A stretch of 63,770 nucleotides of DNA, filler included, from Candidatus Babelota bacterium (lineage in GTDB: Bacteria; JAGOBX01), in the NCBI GenBank assembly GCA_017999075.1. It is 10 parts of 10 records of this genome, joined end to end, with 100 filler letters (N's around TTAATTAATTAA, not from the genome) between each part and the next. Parts side by side here need not be neighbours in the genome. Positions count along the whole stretch, not along the records: positions 44,910 to 51,140 come from JAGOBX010000223.1; 9 more parts are not named here. One strand, given 5' to 3'. This document shows, piece after piece, positions 6,105 to 57,556 of the stretch. Position 1 is the stretch's first letter, and the number at the start of each line of letters is the position of its first letter. The notes beneath the pieces are model-generated. The model had not been told where the DNA came from and did not search any database. It worked only from the letters and a program-made list of their open reading frames with translations. Position numbers and translations under genes: made by a program.

Positions 6105-6344
6105 ATGAAACAAAAGTTTGATCTTGATAAAGAAGAAATATTCACATTTAAGGATAATTTTTTTACTGATTCTGTATTGAATCTCTTATTTTATATAAAA
6201 GAAAATCCTGTTAAATCTATAGTTACAATTCTGATATTAGTTGTAGGAGCATATTTTTCGCTGTATCTGATTAAAAAACCTAAATTTGATATAACTAAAG
6301 CTACATCTGCTCAAATTAAAATTGAACGTAAAATCCTTTTGGTC
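6105..6344 (+). CDS. Hypothetical single-TM protein, 3'-truncated
   Basis: ORF with one hydrophobic helix running into the linker. Confidence 0.6.
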
Positions 6345-6444
6345 NNNNNNNNNNNNNNNNNNNNNNNNNNNNNNNNNNNNNNNNNNNNTTAATTAATTAA
6401 NNNNNNNNNNNNNNNNNNNNNNNNNNNNNNNNNNNNNNNNNNNN
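6345..6444. other. Artificial contig linker, first of nine (others: 12788-12887, 19227-19326, 25656-25755, 32071-32170, 38447-38546, 44810-44909, 51141-51240, 57457-57556)
   Basis: Identical N44-TTAATTAATTAA-N44 blocks, with stops in all six frames. Segment lengths fall monotonically from 6344 to 6214. Confidence 0.99.
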
Positions 6445-12787: not shown

Positions 12788-12887
12788 NNNNNNNNNNNNN
12801 NNNNNNNNNNNNNNNNNNNNNNNNNNNNNNNTTAATTAATTAANNNNNNNNNNNNNNNNNNNNNNNNNNNNNNNNNNNNNNNNNNNN

Positions 12888-43845: not shown

Positions 43846-44809
43846 ATCGGCAAATTACGATTTAAAAGAATTCGCCGTAGAATTATCAAAAAAAAAAGTG
43901 GCGCCAGTTATATATTTGATATATAACGAATCAGATTCTGAAAGCGCGGAATTTATAGATTCAGTAAAATTAGAATTGAATATTGTGGATGACAATATTT
44001 ATATTTACCTTGGCGAAGAAATGGATTTAAATCAGTTTATAACCGATTACTGCAACGTTCCGTTATTCGGCGATAAAAGGCTGTTTATTATAAAAAATTT
44101 AAATAACTCAAAACAAAAACGCGACAAAAAATTAGTTGAATCTTTTTTAAGGCTGCTTGAAGAACCTCAGCAGGAAAATTATATTATTATAACCAACCCT
44201 TATATTTCGGAAAAAAAATATACGGATTTGATATACAAAACTTTGCTGAATTCGGCAGTTATAAAAATAAAAGAAGGAAATGTTATTCAATGGATAAAAG
44301 ATTATGCTGAAAAAAACAGGAAAAACATTGATATGCAGGCAGCAAAAAAATTATTCGCATTATGTAATGAAAAAAAAAATAATATAAAATCAGAATTGGA
44401 TAAATTATTTTTATATTGTCTTAATGAAAAAGAAATAACTCTTGAAGTTATTTCTAAAACAGTTCAGAACTATGACGAGGATAATATTTTCAATTTATTG
44501 GATAATATAATCCTTCGTCAATACGAAAAATCAGTTATTCAATATAGGGAATTATTAAATAAACGGGTGTCTGCGAATGTAATATTGTTTAATTTAATTG
44601 AAAAACTGAATAAACTGATTTATTTTAAAGAAACTGCAGTTAAAATGAAATATATTGGTGATTCTCAACTTGATCAAATTTGTGCTATAATCATGCAAAA
44701 ATATAAGCTTCCAATAAATTATTATGAAAAGTATAAACTTAAAACTTTTGCAGCAAAGTATGATTTTGAAAAATTAAAACTTTTTTTAAAATATATGATA
44801 GAACTTGAT
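43814..44809 (+). CDS. holA: DNA polymerase III delta subunit, 3'-truncated
   Basis: PLFGDKRLFIIKN, WI......K.I...A...L, SELDKL.LY, NIFNLLD.I. Confidence 0.85.
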
Positions 44810-44909
44810 NNNNNNNNNNNNNNNNNNNNNNNNNNNNNNNNNNNNNNNNNNNNTTAATTAATTAANNNNNNNNNNNNNNNNNNNNNNNNNNNNNNNNNNN
44901 NNNNNNNNN

Positions 44910-45660
44910 CTATAATCTTTCAATCTATAACCCTAAAGAGTTTTCTACAAAATTAAAAAACTTTCATCATTTTTAATTCGTTATATTCGTGGTTAAAATT
45001 GTTCTTCGGTGTCATTCAGTGTCCTCGGTGGTTAAAAATCTCTACCACTGAAAACACGGAACGACACCGAAAAATACAATTTACTTTTCTGCCACAAAGA
45101 CACCAAGTCACTAATTTTTTTCGTGTCTTTAGCGCCTTTCGCTGTTAATTTATCAATTGTCTAATTCGTGTGAATTAGTGAAATTCGTGTAGAAAATTCT
45201 TTGACACGAATTACACAGATTCCCACGAATTTTAAAACGCCAAAGCGTTTGCTATAATATTTCAATCTTTGAATCAATAACCATAAAGGGTTTTCTCTAA
45301 AATTAAAGCCGCTCGTCATTTTATTCATTTAATTCGTTTTATTCGTGGTTAAAATTCTTTTTCGGTGTCCTTCAGTGTCCTCGGTGGTTAAAAATTTTCT
45401 ACCACCGAAAACACCGAATTACACGGAAATTTAATTAAAAATATATTCAAACACGAATCTATCAAATCTAACGAATTTAAAATACAAAAGTATTATTTAA
45501 CTGTATCCTTCCGTTAAACCTGTATTCATCTGTTTAAAAAAATTTTTATACTGATTAATAAGTGATTAAACGAATTTTTACGAATTTTAAAAACGCTAAA
45601 GTGTTCTCAATAATTTTTAAATTTTGAAATCTAACAATAATTGTCAATTGTCAATTTATT
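44910..45660. repeat. Non-coding array of ~355-bp units made of imperfect palindromes
   Basis: The hairpin at 45005-45071 recurs at 45361-45428, and CGAATTTTAAAA(A)CGC occurs at 45226 and 45581. Further hairpins lie at 45091-45144 and 45163-45231, and a tandem AATTGTC at 45639-45656. Confidence 0.92.
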
Positions 45661-45664
45661 AAAC

Positions 45665-48600
45665 TTATTCGCGCCATAACTGTTCATTCGCTCCTGCTAC
45701 TTTTTCACGCTGCGTGTACCACCAATGATATCCTTCTCCATTCAATATTTTGGATTTAAACGGCGATCCTTTTGCTTTCGGCTTATTTGAACTGTCGCGG
45801 CTGCTCCATTGAAATTCATCAAAGAGATTGATATTACCTTTATCATCCATATCAAAAACAATATCAGATGCTGAATTATTTTTAAATGTTGTTTCCCATA
45901 TCCGCGAACCGTTTTTATCATACAATACAATCTGACCATTCTTTTCAAATACGCATCTTTCCGCCTTATTTTTATCGCGAGTTGAAAAAATAGGTCCTTC
46001 GTATGTTTTAAAATAATTATTTCTCTGAAATTCAAACCGGCGCGCTGATAATTCAAGATAACCGTCATTTGTGAATGTAAACGTGAAACTTTTATTTGCA
46101 TTACTTATTGATTCGCCTTTTTTCAGTTCAGAACCGCCATACATATATGAATATTGACCATTTTTCGCGTCGGCGATTGCCTTGCGTTTATTGCGGTCAA
46201 ATTTTTTGATCGGCTTGCCATTGCATACAATCTGCAGTTCGCCATATTCGTTTATTGAAGCTGTAGCGCCAGGATTATCTTCCGTTTCCGTTTCCCATGC
46301 AATCTTATTGTCAGAAGTATAGACAACAAGATTACCGTTTTTTTCCATAACGCATCTATATGCCTTTTGTATTGGAAATTCCTGAATAGATTTAAAAGTT
46401 TTCACTGTATCATATGGCGGCGTCTGCATCTGTGATATTTCTTTTCTGTGAGTTATTAGCCAGCCCTTGTTTTTATTCTCATCATTAGAATTTGGATTCT
46501 GAGATATTGAAAAATACATTGCTTTATTTTTATCAGTTGCGTGATAAATGAATTCATTCGGTTTCAATTCCTCGCCTGATTTGAGTTCTATCCTGTCTTC
46601 TTCGGTAAGTTTTTTCACTATAGGCGCAGGAACACCGCCCCATTTGCCGTAAACTTCAATTTCCCGGATTGAGTAATTTGGACCATACATTGCTTTTGTT
46701 CCACTCATACGGATATATCTTGCAACCACATTATTTACCGAAAATTCGCGGTTATCAGCCGTTCCTTTAGTTATTTCAGCAATATCTATCCAGTCATAGT
46801 TATTCGGTGAAACCTGAATTTTATATTGAACGCCCGGATCTACCCAGTCAATTATAATTTTGTTAACAGTTGCATTTGCTTCAAGATCAACTGTAATTGT
46901 CTGTTTATCTCCGACTTCGCTCATCCATTTTGTAGCCGGATTTCCGTCAGTTGCATTTTTGAAATAAGATGTAACAGTTCCCGCCCGCATTTGAGAAGAA
47001 GCGGAAACCGGCTTATTCAACGCGAGATTTTCAGGTTCGGATTGAGAAACAGGCGCTGATTGAGCGCTCCAAACTTCAAATTCATAAATTGCAAAACCTA
47101 TTTCAGTCAATTTCCCATTTGCATCTACTTTCTCATAAAATTTCCGCAAGCGTGTCAAGCAATTTATCTTTACATATCTGGCTTTTATTTCATTGAAAGA
47201 AATATCTTTTTTCCCTTCTTTTCCATTATATACAGCCGCAAGATCCGTCCATTTTTTATTATCAGATGAAACGGAAACTATATATTCCAAAGCTGCTTCA
47301 GGCCGCCAGTTCAATGAAACTCCATTTATCAGAATTTCTCCGCCAATATCAACTGTAATCCATTCTCCGTCATTTGGCTGGGACATCCAATAAGACGACT
47401 GATTGCCGTCATTTGCCCAAGCAGGATTTCTTTCATCATAAAAACTGCTGACAAAAATCTTTTTATTTTTTGCGATATTCGCGCCCTTCAAAGGTTGCGC
47501 TTTAGCAAAAAGTCCGTTCACTTCAAATTCGTTCAGCGCGCAGCCCCATTTGCTCATCGGTTTAACGCATAATACACGCGCGCCGATTGCGATTGTTTTA
47601 TCAATTATAAATTCGCGCGAGCCTTCAAATCCGTCGGTAACTTTAACAATATCTGTCCATATAACATTATCTTTTGTAATTTGAATTTTATATTCTTTTG
47701 CCGCGTTCCAATCCCAATTTACAATAAACCTGTCAATTTCAACCGGACTTTCAAAGAAAACTGCCAGCCAGTCGTTTTCCACGCCGCTTGACACCCAATG
47801 AGTCAAAGGATCGCCGTCAATTGCGCTTTTTGAAGAATAATCCTTTTTAGCGTTTGGATTTCTTTCTATCATACTCGCATGCGCTTCGCTATTTGATTTA
47901 ACAATTCCTTTTTGTGCTTGGTTCATTGTCCGCCAATCTGATTTTACAGAAGTCATACTATTTTTTTTGTTCTCATAAAAATTGAAGACAATCTTGTTAT
48001 CTTTGTCAAATATATTCAAATCTCCGTTATCTGTAAGTTTCAGATAATTATTCGGATATGCCGGAACATTTGATTTCCAATTGCCTTCCCTGCCATTATC
48101 GTCGAATGTTGAAAATTTACCTTCTTTACTAATCATCAAAACCGGATTATCCTGAACTATAATTTCAGATGCCCAGAGCATTTTTTTGGAAGAAACCTCA
48201 TAAATTTTCAATATGCCGCGGGTATTCTGAAACGGCTCAAATTCAAGCGAATATTGACCATTTTTTGAAACAAGCTTATTGCCAACTCTAAATTTTTCGC
48301 CAATAGTCAGCATATCATCCACAACAATTTGCGGAGTTAACTGCGGATTTTTATTTTCAAAAAAAGTAAATATCGCCTTCCCGTTTTTATCAAACATTTT
48401 CAGGTCGCCGCCGTTTGTCAACTGAACATAATTATTCGGATTAACAGTTGCATTGCAAATATTGGATTCTACATCAAATTTATTAAATGATGAAAATTTT
48501 CCGTCAGCTCCCATTTTCAGAGTTATACCGAGATTAAGCGTAGAATACCAGATTTCTTTATTATTCCAGTCATAAATATATAAACGGTTTACGCCGCCAT

Positions 48601-50899
48601 TATCAGTTTTAAACTCAAGTTTATAATTGGCATTTTTGGAAAGCAGTTTATTCCCGATTTTAAAAATACCATTTGGCCCGAGAATATCGTCGCTTGAAGG
48701 AATCTGATTTTGTTGGATTTGATTTGAAGAAACTGATGTATTTTGAACAGGTGTTTGAGCCGCTTCACGGCTTTTAAAAAGCGCGTAGAGATTTTTGTCG
48801 AAATCTTCGTCTTTTGCGCCTTTTGATATTGCGGCATTAATTAAAGCGCGCACATCCTTGAATTTTGATATTGTTTCCGGTTTGCCGAAATCGGACTGTG
48901 GTATTGCTTTCTTACCGTCGATTATTTCAGCCATTGCCTTATTAGCCGCATTGATTTCTGTCAGCGTGCCTGAACTCTTATTTTCAAAAAAAACATAGAT
49001 AGACGCGCCTGATTTATCGAACAGCCGTAAATCGCCTGCATCAGTCAATTGAAGATAATTATCCGGATTTTTCGGGGCATCGCATTTCCAATTTTCGTAT
49101 CCGGTAGGATACATGCTTGACAATTTTCCGTCTGCCCACATTTTTATTGTACCTGCTAAATTCATTTTAGAATACCAGAGTTCATTATTATTTGAATCAT
49201 AGATATAAAACCTGTTGCTTCCTCCATTATCAGTTTTGAATTCAACTCGGTATTTGCCATTTTTTGAAGTCAGTTTATCGCCGATTTTCATTGAACTATT
49301 AGGGCTAAGTATGTCCGCGCCACTCGGAATTGAAGAATTAGACGTTGACTGCTGTGAGTTTGTTTGATGATTTTGCGTCGTTTGATTTGAAGATTGTTGA
49401 ATATTTTGCGTTTGAGTTTGCTGAGTGGCAGATGCAGTTGCCGCAACCTTTTGCGCCGCGCCAGGAACCGAGCCTTCAACTCCCCATAATTCAAATTCAA
49501 TAATCATAGCGGAATTATTCGAAGATTGACACCCTTTGCTTATTGCTACTCGAACATAGCGGGCAATAAATTCCGTTACATTCTTATCTGTAATTGACTC
49601 TTTATTGTTTGAAACAGAATCAACATTTGTCCATTTTTTGTTATCTGAACTTTTTTGTATAACAAATTCAGGTATAACATATTCAGGATAATTGCTGTAA
49701 TGTTTAATAACATAATGCCATATTGTGTGTTCTTTTTCCAAGTCAACAGTCAATATTTTATCATTGTCGTTTGTGAACCAGAAAGTCGTAGCGCTGCCGT
49801 CAATAGCGCGTGCGCCGTTATACGAAACTCCTGCGCTTCCGCTTTCAATATATTTTTTATTAAGCGCCACATTTTTTAACTCTAATGTCTGACTTACGGG
49901 AGGAGTTTGATCCTGCTGCTGCGCTGCTCCTGTATTTTCAACGCCATAAACTTCAAAATCAAGAATAACTCCTATTGAGTTTGAGTTCTGCATTCCTTTA
50001 ATTATTGCTATCTGTACATAGCGCGCAGTAAATTCATCTACTGATTTATCGGTTTTATCAGCACTGTTATTTCTAACCGAATCCACTACTGTCCAAGTTT
50101 TATTATCCGAACTTTTTAAAATATCAAAATCTGAAGTTCTATAAGAAACCGTTAAATGATGTTTGACAACATAACGCGAAATGCGGTATTCTTTCCCTAA
50201 ATCTACGGTTAAATTTTTTTCATTATCGTTGGTGTACCAAAAAGTCAGAGCATTACCGTCCAACGCTTTTTCGCCGTTGTAATAAGATGCAACACTGCCG
50301 CTTTCAACATATTTTTTATTTAATGCAACATTCGTCGGCGGTTGGGTTTGCTCTGATGACCCTGAAGCCGACCGAACGCCGCGGCCTGTTGATCTTGCAT
50401 CCCTTGATCTGCCGGTTGAAGTTCTATCAGTCGATTTTACTTTACGGCTTCTTACTCCCCGCGCTGAACCGCTTTCTGAAGTTTCTTTGTTTTCGGTCTG
50501 CGAATTTGCTTTTTCAAGCGCAGCTTGTTTTTCAAGCGTTTTCATCAATGATTCAAGATTATTCGGGTCAATCTCCGCAGATGTCTGACCGCCAGCGCTT
50601 CTAACTCCCCGGCCCCTGCCAGCCGAACGCACACTGCGCTGCGAATTCTCATCGGAAGATTTTGATTCTTTTTTTTCTTCTTCAGTCATTAGTTTTAACA
50701 GTTCATCCGGCGTCAATATTTTTTCTTTGCTGACTTCATCAGCTGATTTTTCAACATTTTTATCCGCGCTTCTTACGCTTCTTGACCGTGATGAGTTTCT
50801 AACTCCGCGTTCATTGTTCGCGAATAATTCGATTTCCCAAAACAATACAAACACAAATAACACAAAACACATTCTTGAAAAATTTTTAAAATTTTTCAT
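45665..50899 (-). CDS. Secreted multi-lectin protein: five F5/8C (discoidin/CBM32-like) and about five bulb-type-lectin-like domains
   Basis: Signal peptide; N.ALNK...A.DG...T.W...TVDL...ARYV repeats; L.SKNG.Y.LEF and L.LTD.GDL repeats; GGAGG RBS. Confidence 0.85.
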   Translation of the reverse strand: MKNFKNFSRMCFVLFVFVLFWEIELFANNERGVRNSSRSRSVRSADKNVEKSADEVSKEKILTPDELLKLMTEEEKKESKSSDENSQRSVRSAGRGRGVRSAGGQTSAEIDPNNLESLMKTLEKQAALEKANSQTENKETSESGSARGVRSRKVKSTDRTSTGRSRDARSTGRGVRSASGSSEQTQPPTNVALNKKYVESGSVASYYNGEKALDGNALTFWYTNDNEKNLTVDLGKEYRISRYVVKHHLTVSYRTSDFDILKSSDNKTWTVVDSVRNNSADKTDKSVDEFTARYVQIAIIKGMQNSNSIGVILDFEVYGVENTGAAQQQDQTPPVSQTLELKNVALNKKYIESGSAGVSYNGARAIDGSATTFWFTNDNDKILTVDLEKEHTIWHYVIKHYSNYPEYVIPEFVIQKSSDNKKWTNVDSVSNNKESITDKNVTEFIARYVRVAISKGCQSSNNSAMIIEFELWGVEGSVPGAAQKVAATASATQQTQTQNIQQSSNQTTQNHQTNSQQSTSNSSIPSGADILSPNSSMKIGDKLTSKNGKYRVEFKTDNGGSNRFYIYDSNNNELWYSKMNLAGTIKMWADGKLSSMYPTGYENWKCDAPKNPDNYLQLTDAGDLRLFDKSGASIYVFFENKSSGTLTEINAANKAMAEIIDGKKAIPQSDFGKPETISKFKDVRALINAAISKGAKDEDFDKNLYALFKSREAAQTPVQNTSVSSNQIQQNQIPSSDDILGPNGIFKIGNKLLSKNANYKLEFKTDNGGVNRLYIYDWNNKEIWYSTLNLGITLKMGADGKFSSFNKFDVESNICNATVNPNNYVQLTNGGDLKMFDKNGKAIFTFFENKNPQLTPQIVVDDMLTIGEKFRVGNKLVSKNGQYSLEFEPFQNTRGILKIYEVSSKKMLWASEIIVQDNPVLMISKEGKFSTFDDNGREGNWKSNVPAYPNNYLKLTDNGDLNIFDKDNKIVFNFYENKKNSMTSVKSDWRTMNQAQKGIVKSNSEAHASMIERNPNAKKDYSSKSAIDGDPLTHWVSSGVENDWLAVFFESPVEIDRFIVNWDWNAAKEYKIQITKDNVIWTDIVKVTDGFEGSREFIIDKTIAIGARVLCVKPMSKWGCALNEFEVNGLFAKAQPLKGANIAKNKKIFVSSFYDERNPAWANDGNQSSYWMSQPNDGEWITVDIGGEILINGVSLNWRPEAALEYIVSVSSDNKKWTDLAAVYNGKEGKKDISFNEIKARYVKINCLTRLRKFYEKVDANGKLTEIGFAIYEFEVWSAQSAPVSQSEPENLALNKPVSASSQMRAGTVTSYFKNATDGNPATKWMSEVGDKQTITVDLEANATVNKIIIDWVDPGVQYKIQVSPNNYDWIDIAEITKGTADNREFSVNNVVARYIRMSGTKAMYGPNYSIREIEVYGKWGGVPAPIVKKLTEEDRIELKSGEELKPNEFIYHATDKNKAMYFSISQNPNSNDENKNKGWLITHRKEISQMQTPPYDTVKTFKSIQEFPIQKAYRCVMEKNGNLVVYTSDNKIAWETETEDNPGATASINEYGELQIVCNGKPIKKFDRNKRKAIADAKNGQYSYMYGGSELKKGESISNANKSFTFTFTNDGYLELSARRFEFQRNNYFKTYEGPIFSTRDKNKAERCVFEKNGQIVLYDKNGSRIWETTFKNNSASDIVFDMDDKGNINLFDEFQWSSRDSSNKPKAKGSPFKSKILNGEGYHWWYTQREKVAGANEQLWRE

Positions 50900-50968
50900 A
50901 ACAAAACCCTCCGAAAAATAAATATAAATTTTACTTGTATAAACCGTTGTAATCAGCCGGTTATTTTT

Positions 50969-51140
50969 AAATTATTTTTCTGCAACTAAGACACCAGGAT
51001 ACAATTTTTTTCGTGTCTAAGAAAGTAGTGTCTGAAAATTTTTTTGCACGAATCACACGAATTTTCAAAAAATTTTCAAACGCTAAATTATTCGCTGCAC
51101 TCTTTAAATCTTGAATTATAACAATTCTAAAACTCTAAAG
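50969..51140. repeat. Diverged, internally deleted copy of the ~355-bp unit upstream of the lectin gene
   Basis: TTTTCTGC.AC.AAGACACCA...AATTTTTTTCGTGTCT and GAAAATT.TTT..CACGAAT.ACAC...AAACGC.AAA are colinear with 45079-45288 and in the same orientation. Confidence 0.85.
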
Positions 51141-57456: not shown

Positions 57457-57556
57457 NNNNNNNNNNNNNNNNNNNNNNNNNNNNNNNNNNNNNNNNNNNN
57501 TTAATTAATTAANNNNNNNNNNNNNNNNNNNNNNNNNNNNNNNNNNNNNNNNNNNN

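Follow-up and report, generated by a model that had tools for sequence, protein, structure and literature searches.

The stretch of DNA that was analysed, here called the window, is 63,770 nt long and consists of ten contigs concatenated with spacers of the form N44-TTAATTAATTAA-N44 between them. Positions 44910-45660, with which we are concerned here, are therefore the first 750 nt of contig C364, and an ORF that ends at 44857 belongs to a different contig and does not adjoin the region. C364 contains an array of repeats and one lectin-like ORF, and nothing else. The product of this ORF has five F5/8 type C domains and one B_lectin domain; its stop codon abuts the array, which is convergent to the gene. 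The array itself holds just two short ORFs (49 and 55 aa), in agreement with a preliminary description that reported no long ORF there. At the other end of the contig, upstream of the lectin-like ORF, lie further repeats related to those of the array (Table 1).

Table 1. Features of the repeat array and of the remainder of contig C364, in window coordinates.
Feature	Position	Strand	Parts and basis
Two GTG-type ('L') units, ATTCGT dialect, ending GTGGTT	44972..44998	+	Sequence reading
Palindrome A1 (family A)	45005..45071	+	L arm 45005-45032, loop 45033-45043, R arm 45044-45071
Element E, arms in opposite order	45092..45144	+	CAC-type ('R') arm, T run, GTG-type arm
Palindrome B (AATTCGTG dialect)	45163..45231	+	L arm 45163-45190, loop 45191-45203, R arm 45204-45231
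6-bp hairpin, then extended -10-like TGcTATAAT	45235..45250	+	Fold z -3.1
Outer L arm (ATTCATTTA / ATTCGTTTT / ATTCGTGGT)	45323..45349	+	Encloses A2; pairs with 45450-45476
Palindrome A2 (family A)	45361..45428	+	L arm 45361-45388, loop 45389-45400, R arm 45401-45428
Outer R arm (AACACGAAT / CTATCAAAT / CTAACGAAT)	45450..45476	+	Partner of 45323-45349
Tandem heptamer AATTGTC, 2.6 copies	45639..45656	+	Tandem-repeat search
1744-aa ORF	45665..50899	-	Sole true neighbour gene of the array; ORF and domain search
Related repeats (copy of element E and CACGAAT units)	50969..51125	.	C364:6060-6109, 6112-6216

The array is built around three palindromes of 67-69 nt, A1, B and A2, whose arms (27-31 nt in the window) each consist of three units of 9-10 nt. 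With DNA folding parameters and 200 shuffles of each element for comparison, A1 folds at -19.1 kcal/mol (z -6.8), B at -18.6 kcal/mol (z -7.1) and A2 at -16.9 kcal/mol (z -4.9), and in none of the three was a single shuffle as good, so that the triple-unit palindromes of the preliminary description stand, positions included. The arms are 81% complementary in A1 (31-nt arms in the inverted-repeat search), 86% in B (28-nt arms) and 75% in A2. In A1 the left (L) arm is made of three TTCGGTG-type units and the right (R) arm of three CACCGAA-type units, with an A-rich loop between them; A2 and the left half of A1 form a 94% direct repeat. The outer pair of arms described around A2 is likewise present, the left one with 70% complementarity to 45437-45476 in the inverted-repeat search, and the whole 150 nt folds at z -4.8. 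The two units that precede A1 represent the left outer arm of the first copy, which has no right partner, and are a direct repeat of 45328-45360. A1, A2 and the outer pair share one plan: three units of 9-10 nt in tandem around a G[TC]G core, a terminal unit ending in GTGG and a mirror-image partner. Palindrome B has such units too, but carries its CCAC unit at the outer end. In element E, whose arms were correctly described as standing in the opposite order, the R arm (45092-45114) starts with CCAC and the GTG-type arm occupies 45120-45144; it has copies in C480, in C253 and at C364:6060-6109, and it is a weak hairpin (z -2.6; one of 200 shuffles as good). A decayed pair that had been proposed at 45508-45586 folds no better than expected by chance (z -0.35; 67 of 200 shuffles reach its value) and is dropped.

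The 6-bp hairpin marks the beginning of each of two units of about 355 nt, which have a global identity of 67.5%, and it has a counterpart in the units of a related genome, G002. A period of 355-356 nt, as first described, holds for the first 166 nt (82% match) and the last 54 nt (76%), but the middle cannot be aligned, and TRF reported no array with a period near 355 nt in the region. A promoter-like site with 10 of 12 matches lies at 45231-45258; the array as a whole has six such sites against 4.1 +/- 2.2 in shuffles, which is no excess, and a single weak terminator-like site. An Rfam scan of 44400-46000 (E up to 10) returned only sub-threshold matches to miRNA-type hairpins, all far under the gathering scores. 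The AATTGTC run near the end of the array was also found as described; it is the kind of heptamer array that brackets four-helix-bundle genes elsewhere.

Three genomes were compared, namely the source genome (G000) and two related ones, G001 and G002, the latter from another genus. On nine contigs of the source genome there are about 18 copies or half-copies of family A, and with the other sequence dialects the repeats occupy at least 18 contigs in total by hand reading of the search results; homologous composite units occur in G002 and matches in G001. The units are thus multi-locus, on several contigs and in several genomes. Contig C480 bears an array with a 237-nt period in 4-5 copies. Triple tandem G+C-containing 7-11-mers number 43 in G000 against four in a Markov-3 simulated genome, and positions that have three direct copies together with two or more inverted ones number 42 against two. 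A 7-mer over-representation analysis did not single out the motifs; scans for ungapped and one-bulge hairpins (at least 22 of 27 pairs) caught few copies, because the arms differ in unit length and carry mismatches; and a strict IUPAC pattern was too strict, since it had zero matches in 61 genomes, G000 included. By hand count, nine of some 25 loci are no farther than about 520 nt from the end of a contig; sequence within 500 nt of a contig end makes up 15.5% of the genome. The sequencing runs that match the stretch gave DNA contigs from three studies, with no RNA run among them, and in the assemblies of four runs the array was fragmented in all four. Joints in such runs, for example one that skips 360 nt, were considered as signs of excision at the C364 locus and rejected, as they resemble a variant of the 237-nt unit of C480.

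The repeats are associated with a gene. The preliminary description named a link with GxxExxY genes (PF13366), and arms of this type were indeed found at all ten PF13366 loci of the source genome, with one dialect per locus; the PF13366 loci of G001 follow this pattern too. G000 has seven dialects or more, every one linked to its own GxxExxY gene. Family-A arms flank GxxExxY genes on C390, C83 and C137 and also build the gene-less palindromes of C364, C480, C2 and C70, so that within one genome gene-bearing and gene-less copies have terminal inverted repeats in common, as expected of MITEs. Six-frame hmmsearch of C364:1-760, C364:5986-6231 and C480:1750-2900 found no relic GxxExxY coding (best E 0.48). 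G002, which is 86% complete, has family-A palindromes but no match to PF13366; hence either arrays can endure in its absence or the gene is missing from the assembly.

These associations bear on the earlier suggestion of an uncharacterised REP/BIME-like or cassette system, of which the cassette half is upheld by the GxxExxY link and the REP/BIME half is not. According to the definition given in a portion of PMC3733652, a REP is an imperfect palindrome of 20-40 bp with a GTAG or CGTC tag at one end. The palindromes of the window are about 70 nt long, their arms consist of tandem units, and no such tag is present, the ends reading TTCGGTG.../...CACCGAA. The repeats are extragenic, palindromic and multi-copy, a cognate gene between inverted repeats is formally like a RAYT between REPs, and G000 does encode one PF01797 protein, all of which would suit REP/BIME-type elements mobilised by a RAYT (Y1 HUH) transposase. 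But that gene (C51:6159-6518) adjoins a different and unrelated repeat (C51:6583) and no triple-unit arms, which go with the ten PF13366 genes instead. We disfavour this explanation and give it hardly any credence.

The link with GxxExxY genes extends across phyla. With an inverted flank defined as a score of at least 12, such flanks were present at 45 of 78 usable GxxExxY loci, against none of 78 when the upstream window was reversed and one of 73 when the windows were displaced; the other 33 loci had none at this threshold. The arm period was 9 in 22 and 10 in 21 of these 45 loci (43/45), arm length at gene-bearing loci is mostly 26-33 nt, and a strict triple in either flank occurred in 49 of the 78 loci, compared with 4 of 72 in the control. 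At most loci single arms, that is half-palindromes, flank the gene, and in the dominant order the CAC-type arm is upstream and the GTG-type arm downstream. In a minority (C253, L167, L072, L078 and L120) the order is reversed and the GTGG ends point towards the gene, so the 'inside' and 'outside' of a cassette are not fixed. Both ends of a cassette terminate in GTGG plus 1-3 mirrored bases, after which the sequences diverge. Within a cassette, each unit of one arm mirrors the corresponding unit of the other: identity is 0.91 in register and drops to 0.68 at a shift of one unit (21 of 21 loci, subject to the bias of selecting the best register). A literature search with coverage short of most subscription journals and of supplements found no description of such flanks at GxxExxY genes.

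Dialect and protein lineage are inherited together: across phyla the dialect follows the protein tree with 19 changes against a shuffle mean of 24.4, none of 1000 shuffles being as low, on a tree that is poorly resolved (6 of 47 inner branches starred). Co-inheritance alone would also give rise to this signal. An entirely different reading would be that the repeats are operator- or iteron-like arrays of a host DNA-binding protein, involved in control of the lectin-like gene or in local chromosome organisation. A spacing of 9-10 bp brings the motifs to the same side of the helix, it is the motif that is conserved and pairs do not covary, the 1744-aa gene has related repeats at either end, and the composite units are conserved in another genus. 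Against this stand the seven or more dialects in one genome, each with its own GxxExxY gene, the tracking of the cassette protein by the dialects across phyla, and the lack of functional relation among host genes beside the repeats. The array-side gene of G002 was tried as an orthologue of the 1744-aa ORF and rejected, as it gave no tblastn match, and this lack of detectable kinship also speaks against an operator role, which we regard as very unlikely.

The GxxExxY protein (Pfam PDDEXK_3; TIGR04256 / PF13366) has a PD-(D/E)XK nuclease fold. Residues E28, D68, E78 and K80 are invariant in 71 sequences, the structure model has a pLDDT of 93.9, and the nearest solved folds are Cas4, lambda exonuclease and Hjc; a sequence search of the PDB with the GxxExxY profile gave no match. 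In a portion of PMC3424549 the function of GxxExxY and four-helix-bundle proteins is given as unknown.

Do the arms act as DNA or as RNA? They might act mainly as RNA, as stems of about 28 bp that are cut by RNase III or that stabilise or insulate cistrons; in that case the array would serve as a group of hairpins for processing or stabilisation 3' of the lectin-like gene, and the symmetry of the DNA a by-product. Arm lengths of 27-31 nt would suit such a role, as would the RNase III gene encoded in the source genome (C266), and the occurrence of L-loop-R, R-gene-L and R-loop-L forms alike is natural if pairing alone matters. Moreover, the neighbours on both sides are co-directional with the cassette gene at 42 of 60 loci, because of which the cassette genes are probably co-transcribed with them. 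The preliminary description had named a lack of covariation in the stems as telling against its own interpretation, and within family A there is indeed none, 78.0% of cells being paired against 78.6% in shuffles, although across dialects the arms of a cassette still mirror each other as described above. Nor are G-U mismatches favoured over A-C ones on the sense strand (24 and 22, beside 66 of other types), and the spacer positions of family A are mostly unpaired (9-10 of 16 copies). Tandem 9-10-nt units and a special GTGG terminal unit have no obvious role in a plain RNA stem, and the array is convergent to its sole neighbour gene. We consider a mainly RNA-level role unlikely, if still to be taken seriously.

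Another possibility is that the palindromes are attC-like single-stranded sites and that promoterless cassettes are moved, integron-style, by a tyrosine recombinase from another locus. In favour of it, one architecture persists through varying sequences, genes and neighbours point the same way, some arrays run hairpin-gene-hairpin (C589, C390/C83, C233 and L169), and forms with R-gene-L only (C372) fit a spacer crossover of a circular 'gene plus palindrome'. But the cassettes are scattered singly in unrelated operons (type I R-M, pilus, thioredoxin and two-component) with no common platform, and the contigs examined encode no recombinase. On reading of the sequences, the arms have no attC end consensus, and they are tandem repeats, which attC sites are not. 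We think an integron-style system improbable. The site orthologous to C137 in G001 has neither cassette nor palindrome, and its intergenic DNA cannot be aligned; two further empty-site comparisons with G001 and G002 returned coding matches only, the intergenic DNA being too diverged. No insertion event, empty site with an exact junction or target-site duplication was seen between G000 and G001, whose intergenic DNA is too diverged for this, and no duplication beyond the mirrored ends was seen at the cassette termini.

A comparable architecture surrounds a second class of genes. Inverted flanks were found at 17 of 29 four-helix-bundle (PF05635) loci against none of 28 in the displaced control, and the arms are mostly heptamer arrays with a period of 7, including those of genes outside rRNA, in line with the 7-mer tandems that the preliminary description placed at such genes. 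As described in passages of PMC4990558, the IVS (intervening sequence) in the 23S rRNA of Coxiella has a 28-bp terminal stem and tandem heptamers by the S23p ORF's start codon and is cut by RNase III, the copy number of the tandem repeats in the arms differs among strains, and the origin and mobility of rRNA intervening sequences are still unclear. No 23S rRNA gene was found in G000 and G001; that of G002 (3122 nt against a 2925-position model) contains no inverted repeat of 18 nt or more.

With somewhat better than even confidence, we take the region to be a gene-less cluster of arms, the end repeats of a family of miniature selfish IVS-like cassettes that is seemingly undescribed and spread over many bacterial phyla. 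A complete cassette consists of a small GxxExxY gene between mirror-image arms of about 27-31 bp, each arm having three tandem 9-10-bp units with a GTG/CAC core; at the outer ends the CAC-type arm begins with CCAC and the GTG-type arm finishes with GTGG. A1 and A2 each join a GTG-type arm to a CAC-type arm over an A-rich spacer of 11-12 nt, and because GTGG and CCAC face this spacer, they look like the junction of the ends of two adjacent cassettes and not like a single cassette without its gene. Element E looks like a cassette reduced to its two ends. Palindrome B, with its CCAC unit outermost and a 13-nt spacer, fits neither form. The arms may be DNA-level multi-site recognition sequences, akin to terminal inverted repeats, that would be recognised most likely by the cassette's own nuclease. 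New copies would land beside or inside older ones, giving rise to tandem and nested arrays, and arrays so built would be expected to break short-read assemblies. If transcribed, adjacent arms could pair into a stem of some 28 bp, comparable to those cut by RNase III in 23S intervening sequences, which may make insertions in operons tolerable. As no gene is left in it, the array is most likely an inert or non-autonomous relic.

More speculatively, GxxExxY cassettes and four-helix-bundle heptamer cassettes could be sister classes of one unrecognised, phylum-spanning mobile family. The 23S intervening sequences would then be members that landed in rRNA, STRR-type heptamer arrays and palindromic arrays would be gene-less debris, and the 125-aa PD-(D/E)XK protein would be a minimal mobility nuclease that reads three tandem sites per end and cuts beside the terminal GTGG. 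This unification is tentative, and we are inclined to doubt it.

In Bacteroidota, Planctomycetota, Verrucomicrobiota, cyanobacteria and other groups, GxxExxY and four-helix-bundle proteins rank with the most frequent small paralogues annotated as 'hypothetical'. The shared architecture of their ends, mirror-image arms of about 28 bp made of short tandem units, joins these genes, intervening sequences and many unexplained intergenic repeats into a system that can be tested, with a protein plus its own arm dialect as substrates for biochemistry. It also provides a rule for annotating such tandem or palindromic intergenic repeats and explains the breakage of short-read assemblies at these loci, as at the nine near contig ends noted above.

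How does this family compare with known systems? The attC sites of integrons have paired inner and outer boxes, a conserved end core and extrahelical bases. Like them, the palindromes described here are imperfect, with a fixed architecture and a sequence that varies between genes, and as in integron cassettes the small promoterless genes are oriented as their neighbours and units without an ORF exist. Unlike integron cassettes, those described here are dispersed singly, with no integrase or platform on the contigs examined, the arms are internally repetitive, and the end consensus is GTGG/CCAC and not the attC core. Some MITEs and foldback-type elements have terminal inverted repeats made of short tandem repeats. 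The family resembles them in its non-autonomous copies with ends common to gene-bearing copies, in multi-site ends with a distinct terminal unit, and in nesting and tandem arrays; it differs in that we saw no target-site duplication, that its protein is no known transposase, and that the commonest gene-less form is an end-to-end junction and not an internal deletion. With the STRR sequences of heterocystous cyanobacteria, for which our literature search returned fingerprinting uses only, the AATTGTC run and the four-helix-bundle heptamer arms have in common that they are intergenic tandem heptamers in several variants, whereas the main repeats here are 9-10-mers.

REP/BIME elements, and REPINs with their RAYT genes, are likewise extragenic palindromes in many copies, with several sequence families per genome, each with its own gene between inverted copies, and with gene-less copies that outnumber the genes. 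Here, however, the gene is PDDEXK_3 and not a Y1 HUH transposase, it is flanked by half-palindromes at most loci, and the arms are tandem triplets of 9-10 nt in place of the single tagged palindrome of 20-40 bp described in PMC3733652. The differences from the 23S intervening sequences with an S23p ORF (Coxiella, Leptospira), as portrayed in PMC4990558, lie in the unit, which is 9-10 nt repeated three times and not a heptamer, in the PD-(D/E)XK nuclease carried by complete cassettes, in the position, which is intergenic in protein-coding operons and not in helix 25 or 45 of 23S rRNA, and in the copies of the window, which have no ORF and mostly have their outer ends facing one another. By the same account, the two have in common terminal inverted repeats that can form a stem of about 28 bp, arms that at gene-bearing loci hold short tandem repeats beside the start of the ORF, and, in complete members, one small ORF in the loop.

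The array lies at one end of contig C364, where it takes up the first 750 nt. The window is made of ten separate contigs (C357-C366) of an assembly of 594 contigs (3.83 Mb, 30% G+C), joined by N44-TTAATTAATTAA-N44 spacers (N runs 6345-6444, 12788-12887 and so on to 57457-57556), so that adjacency across a spacer is only apparent. The ORF ending at 44857 sits on another contig, and the sole real neighbour of the array is a long minus-strand ORF; C364 stops at the array because the array is repetitive, and blastn against the genome finds related repeats at the opposite end of the contig. The observation behind the preliminary description is largely right. Three palindromes (A1, B and A2), each arm made of three tandem 9-10-nt units, lie exactly where they had been placed, and as single-stranded DNA they fold at -19.1 (z -6.8), -18.6 (z -7.1) and -16.9 kcal/mol (z -4.9), respectively, with 0/200 shuffles as good in each case. 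The folds are short helices interrupted at unit junctions by 1-2-nt internal loops. An outer pair enclosing the second palindrome is likewise present (70% complementary; 150-nt fold z -4.8). Element E, described as having its arms in the opposite order, belongs to a genuine repeat family but makes a weak hairpin (z -2.6), while a supposed decayed pair is at chance level (z -0.35; 67/200 shuffles equally good). The proposed 355-nt period holds in part, with 82% identity over the first 166 nt and 76% over the last 54 nt, against 67.5% globally. Each ~355-nt unit opens with a match to an extended -10-like promoter (TTTAAA, 16 nt, TGcTATAAT); promoter-like sites are no more numerous than in shuffles.

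Positions of the array, its surroundings and other loci in the source genome
Feature	Position	Strand	Remarks
Contig C364	window 44910-51140		
Array	window 44910-45660		
A1	window 45005-45071		palindrome
E	window 45092-45144		opposite-order element
B	window 45163-45231		palindrome
A2	window 45361-45428		palindrome
Supposed decayed pair	window 45508-45586		
AATTGTC tandem	window 45639-45656		
Extended -10-like matches	window ~44910; 45231-45258; ~45586-45614		
1744-aa ORF	window 45665-50899	minus	five F5/8 type C domains, B_lectin domain
Related repeats	window ~50969-51125		
Type I R-M operon (L009)	C233 5040-6950		
Partnerless arms (L005)	C300 1100-2600		
TGGCAGAACTGCCAGAA-type direct repeat, ~35 nt	C236:2073; C349:6417; C480:3395 (L008); C533:1881		distinct from the arms; overlaps start of 133-aa ORF on C480
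9-nt tandem runs (L018)	C47 11277-11400		CTGATAACG, then CGTAAACGC; inside 3933-aa ORF
8-mers (L002)	C70 782-860		about ten, GGATAGGC-like; between two ORFs
Y1 transposase gene with adjoining repeat (L016)	C51 6159-6650		own, different palindromic repeat just downstream
Four-helix-bundle gene (L046)	C288 1495-1812		GTGCGA-type short repeats on both sides

The repeats are not confined to a single locus, as blastn and a motif-cluster scan of the genome agree. The former detects 4-5 near-identical units arrayed with a 237-nt period on C480, and more copies on C137, C390, C300, C2, C253 and C70; the latter gives ~18 copies or half-copies of family A (the TTCGGTG dialect, or unit-sequence variant) on 9 contigs. 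Other dialects share the architecture (TTCGTG, ATTCGCG, CTTCGG, CTTCGCG, CACAAAGACAC, CAGGATA, TCACGCC), and pure tandem arrays of 7-, 8- and 9-mers also occur. The genome holds 43 triple tandem 7-11-mers and 42 positions where at least two inverted copies accompany three direct ones, compared with 4 and 2 in a Markov-3 simulated genome. The long 9-nt tandem runs on C47 are a coding repeat with no relation to the arms. The lineage is thinly sampled, with one genome each from the same genus, family and class: the related genome G001 has many matches, and G002, from the same family, carries a homologous composite unit (family-A palindrome, second triple palindrome, small GC hairpin), likewise at contig ends.

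The proposed association of the repeats with GxxExxY genes is borne out in the source genome and across phyla. Palindromes directly flank small PDDEXK_3 / GxxExxY genes on C137 and C390 (Pfam and NCBIfam calls), and triple-unit arms bracket 10/10 PF13366 loci, with one dialect per gene, the same on both sides. The layout is palindrome-gene-palindrome on C589, C390/C83 and C233, a CAC-type arm (beginning CCAC), gene and GTG-type arm (ending GTGG) only on C372, and mixed on C137; G001 has the same arm arrangement. These cassettes, each a GxxExxY gene between mirror-image arms, sit in unrelated operons: between hsdS and hsdR, after hsdS, beside a pilB-like ATPase gene, flanked by DGC-domain and thioredoxin genes, and at other intergenic positions. 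In the R-M operon of C233, a three-part unit (CAC-type arm, AGTTGAG-like heptamer run, and hsdS ribosome-binding region with first codons) recurs three times over, as though every insertion had copied the beginning of the gene that follows. On C300, partnerless CAC-type arms bracket a DUF4160/DUF2442 pair and a 104-aa ORF, and so arms may bound cargo besides GxxExxY.

With an alignment of five proteins of the source genome, 80 GxxExxY loci spread over many phyla were retrieved from public genomes, and 78 of them were usable. Inverted flanks (130 nt upstream against 130 nt downstream, score at least 12) are present at 45/78 loci, compared with 0/78 when the upstream window is reversed and 1/73 when both windows are moved 300 nt outward; at that threshold they are absent at 33/78. 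The best arm period in the 45 is 9 (22 loci) or 10 (21 loci), and a strict triple, that is, three 7-mers ending G[TC]G at 9-10-nt spacing, occurs in a flank at 49/78 loci against 4/72 displaced controls. Usually the CAC-type arm is upstream and the GTG-type arm downstream, the order being reversed at a minority of loci. Both ends comprise GTGG and one to three mirrored bases, followed by divergence, and within a cassette each unit of one arm is mirrored by its counterpart in the other, with identity of 0.91 in register against 0.68 shifted by one unit (21/21 ungapped loci, a best-register bias being present). Certain dialects have the start codon within the arm, and both neighbouring ORFs are co-oriented with the cassette gene at 42/60 loci. 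Two Verrucomicrobiota of different families (L075, L076) each carry a cassette, in what look, from their flanking translations, like corresponding intergenic sites. At L049 and L057 the terminal unit and first spacer bases resemble, in some dialects, the 9-mer DnaA-box consensus, which may be coincidence in A+T-rich spacers.

A putative sister class is formed by four-helix-bundle genes (PF05635, 23S_rRNA_IVP), found in 25/61 mostly unrelated genomes. Among the best 30 matches, 29 of them usable, 17/29 have inverted flanks, compared with 5/29 reversed controls, a figure inflated by low complexity, and 0/28 displaced ones. The period is mostly 7, in line with the earlier remark on 7-mer tandems beside such genes, and the AATTGTC repeat of the array is such a tandem. 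The sole gene of this class in the source genome has a histidine-kinase gene on one side and a sigma-54 response-regulator gene on the other. The heptamer flanks match the published case of the Coxiella intervening sequence (IVS) of 23S rRNA genes, whose 28-bp terminal stem has tandem heptamers beside the S23p start codon; there the stem is cut internally by RNase III, and how such elements arose is described as unclear (PMC4990558).

This precedent suggests that RNase III cuts such stems when they are transcribed, and the source genome has an RNase III gene; an RNA-processing role for the arms is the main rival to a DNA-level constraint, or an additional layer. In 16 family-A copies from the source genome and G002 (alignment A2), where stem covariation had been looked for, 78.0% of cells are paired against 78.6% in column shuffles (416/500 as high), with covariation scoring 0.109 against 0.110. 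Most of the 2-nt spacers that separate the motifs do not pair, so motif conservation in each arm explains the pairing. Mismatches of gene-flanking arms comprise 24 G-U on the sense transcript, 22 only on the antisense and 66 others. Lacking covariation and a sense-strand G-U excess, the arms favour a DNA-level constraint, with one protein perhaps reading both ends, over selection on an RNA stem. As for that protein, E28 (of GxxExxY), D68, E78 and K80 are invariant in 71 aligned sequences; AlphaFold models it with confidence (pLDDT 93.9), and among solved structures the model comes nearest in fold to Cas4 SSO0001, lambda-type exonucleases, Hjc resolvases and an uncharacterised restriction-endonuclease-like protein, with no sequence match in the PDB. 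A 2012 PD-(D/E)XK survey lists the family as 'function unknown' (PMC3424549). Dialect follows the weakly resolved protein tree (19 changes against a shuffle mean of 24.4; 0/1000 shuffles as low), with single-dialect clades spanning phyla, and thus gene and arms travel together, which does not by itself prove that the protein reads the arms. A nuclease-driven mechanism acting at the DNA level would be a tentative proposal, somewhat short of even odds.

How, then, is the array to be read? The outer ends of a complete cassette are CCAC and GTGG units. In A1 and A2 these units face an 11-12-nt A-rich spacer, so that the form is the right end of one unit, spacer, and left end of the next; by unit order, both would be junctions of two ends, not a cassette without its interior. 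Element E, with its CCAC...spacer... order, resembles a cassette of which only the ends are left, and B, with CCAC at its outer end, fits neither form cleanly. Six-frame profile searches of the arrays found no GxxExxY gene relic (best E 0.48), hence the array consists of debris without genes, or of non-autonomous copies. Most likely the region is a cluster of orphan ends from IVS-like GxxExxY mini-cassettes, and we hold its family assignment with considerable confidence. Against the cassette reading stand the loci of reverse order, those without inverted flanks, and G002, which has palindromes and no PF13366 match in a profile search of its 86% complete genome. No insertion event with exact junctions was seen on comparison of the source genome with its relatives.

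Among known systems, REP/RAYT membership fails, as these palindromes lack the short, tagged form of REPs and the sole Y1 (IS200/RAYT-type) transposase gene lies beside another repeat. Integron membership is unsupported, the cassettes being dispersed and the arms tandem repeats. Arm flanks at GxxExxY genes were not found described in a literature search that covered few subscription journals, leaving novelty unproven. The closest known kind is the ORF-bearing 23S rRNA IVS. What sets the GxxExxY system apart from it are unit length, cargo, genomic location and the gene-less form in which ends abut.
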